Origin: Cirrosporium novae-zelandiae
Taxonomy: Eukaryota
Assembly: GCA_026023565.1 (NCBI GenBank)
Contig: JAPETS010000008.1
Location: forward strand, 372,001-436,000
Length of the DNA: 64,000 bases
Direction of reading: 5' to 3'
In this document: piece by piece, positions 23,831 through 27,171 of the stretch
Layout of the letters: the number at the start of each line of letters is the position of its first letter
Numbering within the stretch: position 1 is the first letter of the stretch
The notes under the pieces: generated by a model
What the model was told of the DNA's origin: nothing
Database searches by the model: none
Seen by the model: the letters and a program-made list of their open reading frames with translations, nothing else
Program-made: the position numbers and the translations under genes

Positions 23831-24131
23831 CTATTGCTGTAGATCTTGATTTATTTTCCCTCGCCGTGTTCCGTAAGTAATAAGATATTGGCGCATTATC
23901 AATCACGGCAAGATTTTGGGATAGCTAAATCCAAACCATTGAGATTTCATTGCCTGGTTTGTGATCGCTCGAAACAATCTAGAATACAGAGCCATTTTCT
24001 TTTTACCATAACAAGCCGACCGAATGAATTACTTGATAGACCGAAAGAGAAACCCCATCGTCTGCACCCCAGTGAAATCTGGGCCATAGTAAAGGACAAC
24101 CTTGAGAAAACGGAAAGTATCAATGACCAAA

Positions 24132-26100
24132 TTAGTTAGCCATGTAGGTACTAGAGTCAACACCTCCCTCTGGAAACTCACTAAAGCCGTAGTTAGTAAC
24201 AGCCAAAGATACTGATAGCTGAGGTATAACTTACGGCAAAGCCACTTCGAAGCGCTTTTCGATCGACTTGAGTACTTCCTGATCGCCCTCGCTGCTCACG
24301 AAGGAGATACTCAATCCCTTCGTACCAAATCGTCCAGCACGACCAACACGATGGAGATATGAGTCAGCGTCTTGTGGGAGATCGTAGTTGATTGCGAGGT
24401 TAATACGCTCGATATCTATTCCACGGCCGAAAACATCGGTAGCGACACAAATACGCTTGTTGAATTCTTTGAATTCCTTGTAGCGTTTGATACTGCCATA
24501 TATTAGGATTCTAGTTTGGACCAAGTGCTCTTCAGACATTCGCTTACCGTTCCTCTTGACTGACGCCCGAATGTACAGCAATACTAGGGAAGTTGCACTC
24601 CCTTAGGAGCTTGTCCAATTCAGTAGCACGAAGAGTACTCTTTACGAAGATGATGACCTGGTTGAACTCCAAGGTGTCGAGCAATTCATTGAGCTTCCTG
24701 TTCTTTTCACTCTCGCTGAGCTTGACATAGTACTGTTGAAGACCGTGCAAGGTAAGCTTTGTCTCATCATCAACATAGATCTCCAATGGGCTCCTCATGA
24801 ACTTCTTGCATATGGGTCGGATGTCCTGTGATAGGGTGGCACTGAACATCATAACCTGTTTGGCCGAAGGTGTGGCACGGAAAATCTCCTGGACGTCACG
24901 CCGCATATCTAATCCACGTTTAGTGAATTGTATTAAATAATCAAGCAAAATACTACCTACCAATTTGGTCGAGCATCTTATCACACTCATCAAGTACAAA
25001 CATCTTGATGTTGTTTAGGCGAAGTTTCTTCTCCCGCACCAGAGCATTCAATCGCCCAGGAGTCCCAACAATGATATGGGGATGCGTTTCCTTGCTTGAA
25101 AGGATCTCAATATCCTTCTGCATTGGAGTACCGCCATAGAAAACACCAGTCTTGATATCTGGCATATATTTGCTAAATCGAGCGTACTCATTCTTGATTT
25201 GATATGCCAGCTCACGAGTATGGCACATCACAAGGACAGAGCACTCTCCTGGTACAGGTTCAATCTGCTGTAGGGTTGCTAATACGAAGACTGCGGTTTT
25301 ACCGAGACCAGATTTGGCTTGGCAGAGGACGTCGGTACCGAGGATTGCCTGAGGAATACAAACTTGCTGGACTATTATATGAAGCGACGACGTTAGATTT
25401 GTTTTCGTTCCAAGAGAGTAATGCCATGCAAAATCGATCGTAACGTCCGTCCATCTCGCACACTGTGAATCCAAATAGTTCAAAATCCGAAAGGAATAGA
25501 GCAGAAATCCAAGACAACACCATGCAAAGAGGCAAGCAACACACTCCATATACGCGTTGGACAATAGAGAAACATTTGTGGGCGGCCCGAGAGTCTCTCA
25601 TTAGCATTTTCAATCCCCAGATCCTTCCACAAATCAAGAATTGCGTTGTCGCTGCATGCTTGAATACGCTATTGCGTTAATATCAACCATGCTTATGACA
25701 ATACTTCCTGCAGCCGTAATAACAGAAAGTTCGCTCTTGGAGAGATTCCCTCAGGCCGCCCACAGGGCATCGATTTTCAAGTGGCGATAAAGATGCGAAG
25801 ATGGACGGACGTTGTAGGATTGAGTAACTGGAGGGAGTTTGGGAGAAATCATGACTAACCCTCCGATGGATGTTCGAAACCGCAATCCGTTATAGCTCGG
25901 AGAAGCTCTGGCTTCAGCAAGAAATCGCGAAAACCCGTCGAATGAATGCCGACATAACTACCCTTCTTGTCGGCGCCAGCTCCAGCTACCGTGAGGTCAC
26001 CCTTTTTAACAGCACCATTTGCGGCTGCTGCGGTTATTGTAGTCTCTGTAGTCTGGAGTTCCTCATCCGAGTAATCGATCAAATCTTCTTCGTGAGACAT
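24132..26100 (-). CDS. SUB2: DECD-box RNA helicase Sub2/UAP56 (5 exons)
   Basis: [60 protein letters not shown]. Introns 25372-25859, 24909-24960, 24493-24547 and 24181-24234 are all GT-AG and frame-consistent. Confidence 0.98.
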
Positions 26101-26562
26101 GGTTTTTGAACTGTTAAGTTGTTTGTTCAACAAGGCAGTATGAGGCAAGGTCTTGCTGCTGCTGATGATCACTTAAGTGGAAAAGCAAAACGAAAGTCAC
26201 AAAGATATAGAGGCAAGAAGAAGATATTGAGAATCGAATGGGGAAGAAAGGTCGAGGGATGGGTGATGATCTGTTTGATCTCTTTGTTGATGAATGTGTG
26301 GTTGAAGAGGTAAGGGAAGAAAGGGAAGGAGGAGGAGCGCGAAAGTCTTTGCGGCGTGTCTAGTCTGCATTTGGAATAGTGCGGTATTGAATTCAGGTGT
26401 CGGAATTACGCCTGTTCGCTTTTGCCGAAACCATCAACTTTCAAATTTAACCAAAAATATATCTATAGCTACTAATTACCTAATTACACTTGATTTATGT
26501 TGGCCATGTATTGTTTTAAGCAGTATACATTTGCTAATCTTGAGTTTTCCTTATGATTCAAC

Positions 26563-27171
26563 ATGGCCAAAAGCAAGAATAAAAAAACTACTCCTAGTGC
26601 ACCTCAGAAGCACCTATATTCCCGAATATCCTATCTTTACCAGACAGCAATTTTGCTCAATTCCGTTCAAACAGGAAGAAATCGGTTGGAGAGTGAAACA
26701 AACAAAGAATCTCAGTATCAATCCTCAAAGTCTACAGATACTATTCGAAACAATGAGTCTGGTGGCCTAGGTAATGCGCCAAACTTGCATGAAGAAAATA
26801 GAGAAGAATCATTGCAGAACCCAATAACCCAACGGTCAACCCGTCGATTACTTTCTCAAGCTCGTGCAATCTCTATGAAGTCTCAAATACGTCTTTCACC
26901 AAATATCAAGCGAACAATTTGCAAACGATGCGACGCCCTTTTGATACCAGGGCAATCGAGTGCAGAGTATATTGAAAACATCAGTCGTGATAGGAAGAAA
27001 CCATGGGCGGATATTCTCGTTATACAATGTCAACTGTGTGGGACTTCAAAACGTTTCCCAGTAGGGGCTTCGAAGCAGACAAGACGGACGGACCGTACTT
27101 CGGGAACAGCAATGACAACAACAGAGTCGCAATTGGCTACGAGAGGAAATAAGATGGAAGTAGAGATCTGA
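26563..27171 (+). CDS. RPR2: RNase P subunit Rpr2/Rpp21
   Basis: HLYSRISYLYQ; KSQIRLSPNIKRTICKRC...IQCQLCG two CxxC zinc ribbon; divergent from SUB2. Confidence 0.88.
   Translation: MAKSKNKKTTPSAPQKHLYSRISYLYQTAILLNSVQTGRNRLESETNKESQYQSSKSTDTIRNNESGGLGNAPNLHEENREESLQNPITQRSTRRLLSQARAISMKSQIRLSPNIKRTICKRCDALLIPGQSSAEYIENISRDRKKPWADILVIQCQLCGTSKRFPVGASKQTRRTDRTSGTAMTTTESQLATRGNKMEVEI

Follow-up and report, generated by a model that had tools for sequence, protein, structure and literature searches.

The SUB2 gene and its first intron

The stretch of Cirrosporium novae-zelandiae DNA analysed here (contig JAPETS010000008.1, positions 372,001 to 436,000; 64,000 nucleotides (nt), hereafter the window) carries on its minus strand, at 24130-26100, the gene for the DEAD-box helicase Sub2/UAP56, and our analysis concerns a structured RNA element contained in the first intron of this gene, SUB2. 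The 136-residue translation of exon 2 matches the structure of yeast Sub2 (PDB code 5sup) with an E-value of 2e-63 and human DDX39B with an E-value of 7e-59, other DEAD-box proteins reaching only about 1e-22, and Pfam identifies a DEAD domain in the product. As defined from the sequence and its reading frames, exon 1 spans 26100-25860 and is followed by intron 1 at 25859-25372, which has the form GUUAGU...CUAAC...UAG, splits the codon after GFEHPSE and encloses the entire structured element. At 488 nt it contrasts sharply with introns 2, 3 and 4 (24960-24909, 24547-24493 and 24234-24181, all on the same strand), which measure 52, 55 and 54 nt. These coordinates and the contrast in length agree with a first-pass annotation of the window that had been made from the sequence alone. 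Its statement that retention of the intron leads to an immediate stop is also borne out, as the retained intron reads GGU UAG, with the stop as its second codon; an unproductive, intron-1-retaining SUB2 RNA would carry this premature stop.

The RNA of intron 1 folds with an energy of −152.3 kcal/mol, as against −128.05 ± 6.08 kcal/mol for shuffled sequences (z = −3.99), and none of 100 shuffles was as good. The base of the fold is formed by a helix, P1, which was identified by a repeat finder, by the minimum-energy fold and by conservation. Its 5′ arm at 25794..25813 on the minus strand (AACGUCCGUCCAUCU, a bulged U, then CGCA) pairs with a 3′ arm at 25442..25460 (UGCG, then AGAUGGACGGACGUU) that ends about 51 nt before the branch-point A. 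The perfect part of this helix had already been proposed, and the repeat finder returns it as two arms of 15 nt (25442-25456 and 25799-25813) that are 100% complementary and 342 nt apart; past the 1-nt bulge, the helix reaches 22 pairs in the minimum-energy fold of the window. A second proposed helix, P2, is recovered as well, with arms of 23 nt at 25577-25599 and 25742-25764 that are 83% complementary as DNA and form 17 + 6 pairs, including G-U pairs, in the RNA fold. The 5′ arm of P2 (25740..25764, minus strand; UGUGGGCGGCC... then GGGAAUCUCUC) and its 3′ arm (25577..25599, minus strand; GAGAGACUCUC then GGGCCGCCCACA) both rest on the repeat finder, the fold and a clade alignment described below. 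Within the 64-kb window, the arm sequences of P1 and P2 each occur only at the two expected places. The minimum-energy fold further contains a 9-bp hairpin, H1, at 25703..25730 on the minus strand (ACUUUCUGU / GCAGGAAGU), which was absent from the earlier list of helices.

Conservation of intron 1 among distant relatives

To cover relatives, metagenome contigs were scanned with the SUB2 exon-2 peptide, and the best 80 of 354 loci were analysed. Both flanking exons are present in 69 of these 80 loci, which without exception have the same codon interrupted by a GT..AG intron of 423-706 nt. The 69 loci yield 48 distinct introns, which together with the window gives 49. Single-linkage clustering at an identity of 0.70 at four-fold-degenerate sites groups the loci into 31 lineages, which share a median identity of 0.33 with one another; for exon 2, the identity between the window and any locus ranges from 0.21 to 0.51. 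The neutral sites of these lineages are near saturation. In blastn comparisons, little of the intron aligns between relatives except its ends and the P1 arms. Contigs of other organisms (public runs X2 and X3, from the same study as the probable source assembly; at least 80% identity) match the exons and stop exactly at 25373 and 25851, which indicates an intron at the same site whose sequence has diverged.

The first-pass annotation had made its proposal depend on conservation and covariation among relatives. The intron and its stems are indeed kept, with covariation, in very distant relatives, and a conserved structured element in a SUB2 intron is supported more strongly than could be known from the one sequence. 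When the whole structure of the window was scored on alignment A1, a plain MAFFT alignment that comprises all 49 introns, 57.4% of the cells were paired, compared with 36-41.5% when the pairing partners were slid by 1-3 columns. RNAalifold returned 0 pairs from the full alignment of 1127 columns, which is too gappy, and long-window duplex folding of the introns produced sloppy duplexes that were discarded.

The long-range helix P1

The core of P1, GUCCGUCCAUCU/AGAUGGACGGAC, recurs in most introns and was found in 27 of the 31 lineages (with at most two mismatches per 10-mer). Its 14 pairs have 87.5% of their cells paired in alignment A1, and 9 of the 14 have changed on both sides. The two arms form a duplex of −20 kcal/mol or lower in 46 of the 49 introns, with z ≤ −3 in 43. 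Compensatory variants are seen in several places: GUCCUUCC/GGAAGGAC in L043, AUCC..AUCC/GGAU..GGAU in L024 and L025, GCCCGUCC/GGACGGGC in L074 and AUUCCGC/GCGGAAU in the L058 group, while the outer end of the helix alternates between AACG/CGUU and AGCG/CGCU, again in a compensatory manner. There are exceptions. L044 is misaligned but has GUCUGUCCGUCC / GGACGGACAGAC; L048, L052, L072 and L073 use different arms, UCCGUCUCCGUG / CACGGAGACGGA, according to alignment A1; and no P1-type helix was seen in L068.

The 12-bp core is near-invariant in its sequence and not only in its pairing. The exact P1 10-mer is present in 57 of the 80 loci, once or twice in each, always inside intron 1 and never in the flanks. 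GUCCGU lies within the 5′ arm in most lineages. In some of them the GUCC/GGAC unit of P1 is repeated in the arm regions (L011, L030 and L045; for example GGACGGACUGACGGACGAACGGAC in L011), and such repeats would permit P1 to form in shifted registers. Outward extensions of P1 (“P0”, for example CCAA/UUGG) appear in some folds but were rejected, being no better than those of shuffled sequences (z mostly between −1.5 and +1.5).

Helices inside the insert

The clade of the window comprises 19 introns, which were aligned as 16 distinct rows (alignment A5). Its structure was scored jointly over P2a (GGGCGGCC/GGCCGCCC), P2b (GGAAGUCUC/GAGACUUCC), H1 and a small third hairpin. Of the cells, 89.6% are paired, compared with 34-49% when the partners are slid, and 11 of 35 pairs have changed on both sides, a number reached by none of 500 shuffles. 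RNAalifold applied to A5 gives the same helices. The P2 helices are 85.8-93.8% paired in this clade. Outside the clade, single-sequence folds place other long stems around the hairpin; these are unalignable and were left uncounted.

In the hairpin corresponding to H1, a stem of 5 bp closes a loop of 7 nt, NNNCGRC (UUUCGAC in its commonest form), and is stacked on an outer stem of 4-6 bp. We found this motif in 32 of the 49 introns and 20 of the 31 lineages, as 23 distinct sequences that all adopt the same fold when folded alone. Both stems covary, the inner one as CUGUA/UGCAG, CUACA/UGUGG, UUGCA/UGUAA and UUACA/UGUAA, and the outer one as GCUAU/GUAGC, GCUCC/GGAGC, GUGUA/UACAC, CUUGC/GCAAG, CUCG/CGAG and ACUCA/UGAGU. 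The H1 loop of the window is UUACGGC, the same as in L035, plus one extra U, owing to which RNAfold draws a 10-nt loop. A covariance model of the hairpin, built from 12 sequences of a single clade (clade B), was searched against 465 kb, that is, the window and the 80 loci. It returned 17 matches at E ≤ 1, all of them in SUB2 intron 1 and two of them in partial loci outside the training set. The model also has weak recurrent matches (8-11 bits, E 1-9) in many loci at a single conserved coding position of SUB2, about 150 nt past the end of exon 2 (for example L001:3552-3586); these we take as a chance resemblance in a conserved SUB2 exon. No conserved partner of the hairpin loop was found among the introns, complements of at least 6 nt being scattered and confined to a minority. 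A stretch before the branch point is complementary to the intron’s own hairpin loop in L030/L031 (intron positions 437-443, 7 of 7 nt) and in L013/L021/L022 (position 432); most lineages have nothing comparable, and the match is probably due to chance.

The identities of the mismatched and wobble cells bear on the strand. G-U cells outnumber A-C cells by 41 to 24 in P1, by 55 to 15 in P2 and the hairpin together, and by 19 to 0 in the clade B hairpin, where sequences rather than independent events are counted. Because G-U cells pair on the transcribed strand alone, this excess and the compensatory changes indicate that pairing takes place on the transcribed strand.

Three further features named in the first-pass annotation look specific to the window, as judged from the alignments. 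The helices of P3, an irregular hairpin at 25646..25701 on the minus strand, are present in the minimum-energy fold of the window, but only 34-57% of their cells are paired across the 49 introns and P3 is not conserved as such. The 9-nt pairing between 25430-25438 and 25769-25777, which crosses P1 and had been offered as a possible pseudoknot, does exist according to the repeat finder, but is confined to the window. The branch-point-like GCUAAU..AG motif next to P2, too, occurs in the window and is not conserved.

Spacing and splice signals

P1 is a long-range helix that joins a segment close to the 5′ splice site to one just before the branch point. We measured the spacing in the 44 introns in which the P1 core and the branch motif could be placed automatically. 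The distance from the 5′ splice site to the start of the P1 core has a median of 52 nt (range 45-118, standard deviation (sd) 10.8), and that from the end of the core to the branch A likewise has a median of 52 nt (range 42-91, sd 8.2); L044 is the outlier in both. Between its arms, P1 encloses an insert of 197-546 nt (sd 74). Outside P1 there remains a path of 104 nt in the median (88-209 nt over the introns measured), within the range of a short intron.

The 5′ splice site of the window, at 25854..25859 on the minus strand, is GUUAGU, with a pyrimidine at position +3. All 49 introns have GUYAGU at this place, 29 of them as GUCAGU and 20 as GUUAGU. In intron 2 of the same loci, a +3 pyrimidine occurs in 1 of 49, and the other positions of the site vary freely. 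Since a +3 pyrimidine is generally known to weaken a 5′ splice site, GUYAGU represents a sub-optimal splice signal kept by selection. Conservation at the intron start extends beyond the splice hexamer (window 25851-25859), with GUYAGUCAU in most lineages, and in the X2 and X3 contigs of other organisms the match likewise runs as far as 25851 before divergence sets in. The branch-point motif CUAAC lies at 25392..25396 on the minus strand, 21 nt before the 3′ splice site, and the 44 introns measured have CURAY or UUAAC 17-25 nt before that site. Pairing between the 5′ splice site and the branch point (GUYAG/CURAC) was considered and rejected, as it shows no covariation and 21 of the 49 introns have a non-pairing C/A.

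Comparison with known RNAs and repeats

The first-pass annotation would have yielded to a known small nucleolar RNA (snoRNA) or to a multicopy miniature inverted-repeat transposable element (MITE). A search of Rfam with 24000-26500 at permissive thresholds gave just two matches at chance level (E 4.3 and 4.4), far below the gathering scores, one falling within exon 2, the second on the opposite strand. No Rfam family, snoRNAs and riboswitches included, matched any of eleven related loci (56 kb) at E ≤ 0.1. No conserved C/D or H/ACA boxes were seen in alignments A1 and A5, an ACA after P2 being found in the window only. Neither a covariance-model match nor conserved boxes would place the element among the intron-hosted snoRNAs or other Rfam families. 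A single contig of the probable source assembly, of which 35.7 million letters were read, covers the intron at an identity of at least 80%, with no second copy, and no target-site duplication was seen beside the P1 arms in the window sequence. The multiple copies that, with a target-site duplication, mark a MITE or foldback element were thus not seen in this assembly, and at the 80 loci the P1 10-mer is confined to this intron.

Two features lie upstream of SUB2. The region 26200-26400, directly before the start codon, is C/T-rich on the SUB2 coding strand, with a plus-strand GC skew of up to 0.62; we presume that it is a pyrimidine-rich core promoter or 5′ untranslated region typical of filamentous fungi. 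An open frame at 26560-27171 on the plus strand contains an RNase P Rpr2/Rpp21 subunit domain (PF04032, E 2.5e-23), is divergent from SUB2 and lies about 450 nt from its start codon.

Discussion

SUB2 intron 1 is a conserved cis element in the gene’s own pre-mRNA. It is a single-copy, strand-specific, multi-helix RNA that has been retained in a single intron of a single gene across lineages with saturated neutral sites, and it is accompanied by a fixed spacing to the splice signals and by a fixed non-consensus donor. On balance, we favour the reading that this intron is a conserved, folded, cis-acting RNA whose structure-dependent removal creates a post-transcriptional control point on the dosage of Sub2. 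In yeast, Sub2/UAP56 is essential, and both excess and shortage are harmful. Judging from the comparison of sequences, the structure of the intron probably controls the amount of this dosage-sensitive protein that is made.

Such a control point could work as follows. P1 clamps the base of the 197-546 nt insert, so that in the folded intron the spliceosome has about 100 nt to bridge rather than about 450 nt. Once P1 has formed, intron 1 would be spliced like a short fungal intron. If P1 were hindered during transcription, or if the insert were bound by protein, the weak 5′ splice site would be poorly used; intron 1 would then be retained, the stop at the second intron codon would be encountered and the transcript would be degraded. 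The insert and the weak donor together would make the outcome of splicing tunable. The most likely input would be Sub2 or the transcription-export (TREX) complex, because the precedents point that way: YRA1, the ribosomal proteins L30, S14 and S9, the “DEAD” element of plant DRH1 and, reportedly, Chtop and DBP2. Loading of Sub2 onto the insert or the nascent 5′ arm could then result in negative feedback. By analogy with these systems, feedback of Sub2 through intron 1 is plausible.

Autoregulation of YRA1, RPL30, RPS14B and RPS9 in yeast is described in one article (PMC11585973). YRA1 is similar to SUB2 in that Yra1 is the TREX partner of Sub2 in the same mRNA-export complex, its intron is atypically long with sub-optimal splice signals and its unspliced RNA has an early stop. 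The two differ in that control of YRA1 relies on the size of the intron, on a long first exon and on modular elements within the intron to which Yra1, Mex67 and Edc3 bind; the sequences are unrelated, and a feedback for SUB2 would hold by analogy. YRA1 is also not known to use a phylogenetically conserved long-range helix. For RPL30, assembly of the spliceosome is blocked at one step by a structure that the transcript itself contains (PMC11585973). The RPL30 structure is, in this account, a small kink-turn over exon 1 and the 5′ splice site that is bound by the ribosomal protein, whereas that of SUB2 is a domain of about 350 nt closed by a long-range helix. Yeast RPL30, the classic autoregulated intron, reportedly has the unusual 5′ splice site GUCAGU as well.

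A further parallel is found in plants. According to a preprint, opening of the conserved “DEAD” structure in the helicase gene DRH1/RH46 shifts splicing to non-coding forms (bioRxiv 10.64898/2026.01.23.701338). As in SUB2, a conserved RNA structure lies in the gene of a DEAD-box helicase, and it is described there as sensing the activity of its own helicase, which is the mechanism that the first-pass annotation had proposed, and that may apply by analogy, for SUB2 intron 1. The plant helicase belongs to the DDX5/Dbp2-like subfamily rather than to that of Sub2/UAP56, and to a different kingdom. Moreover, the plant structure controls an alternative splice site, whereas in SUB2 the GUCCGU in the 5′ arm of P1, present in most lineages, is at most a candidate for such a site.

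Several observations weigh against a control point on Sub2 dosage. P2 cannot be aligned outside the clade of the window, and 11 of the 31 lineages yielded no match to the hairpin motif. On the window’s clade, the clade B hairpin model scores weakly (8.7-16.3 bits, E 0.05-6.5) and so does not amount to an independent detection of the H1 copy in the window. The near-invariance of the P1 core exceeds what pairing alone explains. P1 has an energy of about −30 kcal/mol over 14-27 pairs, a stability that exceeds that of the duplexes that DEAD-box proteins are known to unwind; sensing would therefore have to precede the formation of P1, during transcription. The 3′ arm of P1 is transcribed about 350 nt after the 5′ arm. 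Finally, a purely constitutive splicing aid predicts the same conservation of P1 and of its spacing.

This last possibility remains the main rival, although we regard it as rather unlikely. It holds that P1 is a constitutive “zipper” that merely bridges the distance between 5′ splice site and branch point in an over-long intron, with nothing being regulated and the insert being tolerated baggage. The tight and symmetric spacing (medians of 52 and 52 nt) beside an insert that varies from 197 to 546 nt would fit this, as would the distribution of P1, which with 27 of 31 lineages is wider than that of any other element, and the mostly unalignable interior of the intron. A neutral insert, however, should have been lost in some of the 31 near-saturated lineages, and all 69 loci with both flanking exons keep an intron of at least 423 nt. 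A constitutive aid also leaves unexplained the hairpin with its conserved loop and covarying stems in the insert, the retention of the non-consensus 5′ splice site in 49 of 49 introns, and the conservation of the 12-bp core in sequence, beyond its pairing. The zipper helices known from long Saccharomyces cerevisiae introns, such as RPS17B/RP51B, resemble P1 in being long-range helices that run from behind the 5′ splice site to before the branch point and shorten the effective distance. They are reportedly not conserved in sequence over long distances, whereas the 12-bp core of P1 is near-invariant across saturated lineages and encloses a conserved hairpin.

It is improbable that SUB2 merely serves as host gene to a stable non-coding RNA in its own right (for instance a snoRNA-like or other ribonucleoprotein RNA specific to the lineage), of which P1 would be the terminal or processing stem. 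P1 does close a discrete multi-helix domain with a conserved loop in its hairpin, and intron-hosted H/ACA snoRNAs are known in Pezizomycotina, as reported in a structured-RNA screen (PMC8216456). The domain has no credible match in Rfam, though, either in the window region or at the eleven other loci, and neither alignment A1 nor A5 showed a conserved C/D or H/ACA box; its conserved bases lie mainly in helices, with no conserved single-stranded, guide-like stretch common to the clades. That the element is what remains of a foldback or miniature inverted-repeat transposon, or that it acts at the DNA level, for example as paired transcription-factor sites, in either case without a function in RNA, is very improbable. 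The attraction of this view lies in P1 being a perfect 15-bp inverted repeat with arms 342 nt apart and in the simple GUCC-unit repeats of some lineages. It is opposed by the single matching contig in the probable source assembly, by the confinement of the P1 10-mer to SUB2 intron 1 in about 400 kb of the 80 loci, by the lack of a visible target-site duplication beside the arms, and by compensatory changes and an excess of G-U over A-C that indicate pairing on the transcribed strand. A ligand-sensing, riboswitch-like intron is hardly credible in spite of a conserved multi-helix fold inside an intron and the precedent of fungal thiamine pyrophosphate riboswitches, which work via splicing (bioRxiv 10.64898/2026.01.23.701338), as there is no match to an Rfam riboswitch, few unpaired junction bases are conserved, the interior differs among clades and no metabolite is obviously linked to Sub2.

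An entry for SUB2, UAP56 or a helicase was not found in the main texts of two genome-wide screens for structured RNAs in fungi (PMC5640933 and PMC8216456, the latter including part of its table of 17 structures), whose supplements could list weaker candidates. The literature on autoregulation through SUB2/UAP56 introns in fungi gave no description of the intron 1 element, most subscription journals lying outside the coverage. Full-text matching of two P1 12-mers, as DNA and as RNA, led to fungal papers that contain an unrelated primer and a mycovirus contig. Within these searches of texts and sequences, the element of SUB2 intron 1 appears to have no published description.

A more specific proposal can be put forward tentatively. 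The intron may be a previously undescribed sensor RNA, present in a broad range of filamentous ascomycetes, in which co-transcriptional folding of P1 and the hairpin domain would read the activity of Sub2 or TREX and set the dosage of Sub2 by structure-gated splicing. The P1 core and the NNNCGRC loop would then be docking sites for factors, and the intron would be an independent fungal counterpart of the plant DRH1 “DEAD” element. We consider this possible but not to be expected at present.

If the proposal of a sensor RNA were true, the element would be the first of its kind for the UAP56/Sub2 family. Intronic structures that survive saturating divergence are rare, and the architecture found here, which consists of a helix, a hairpin and an unusual splice site, is testable. 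The way in which a cell gauges the level of the helicase that packages its mRNA can thereby be addressed directly by experiment, and the element offers a second, independent case beside the helicase-sensing element of plants.

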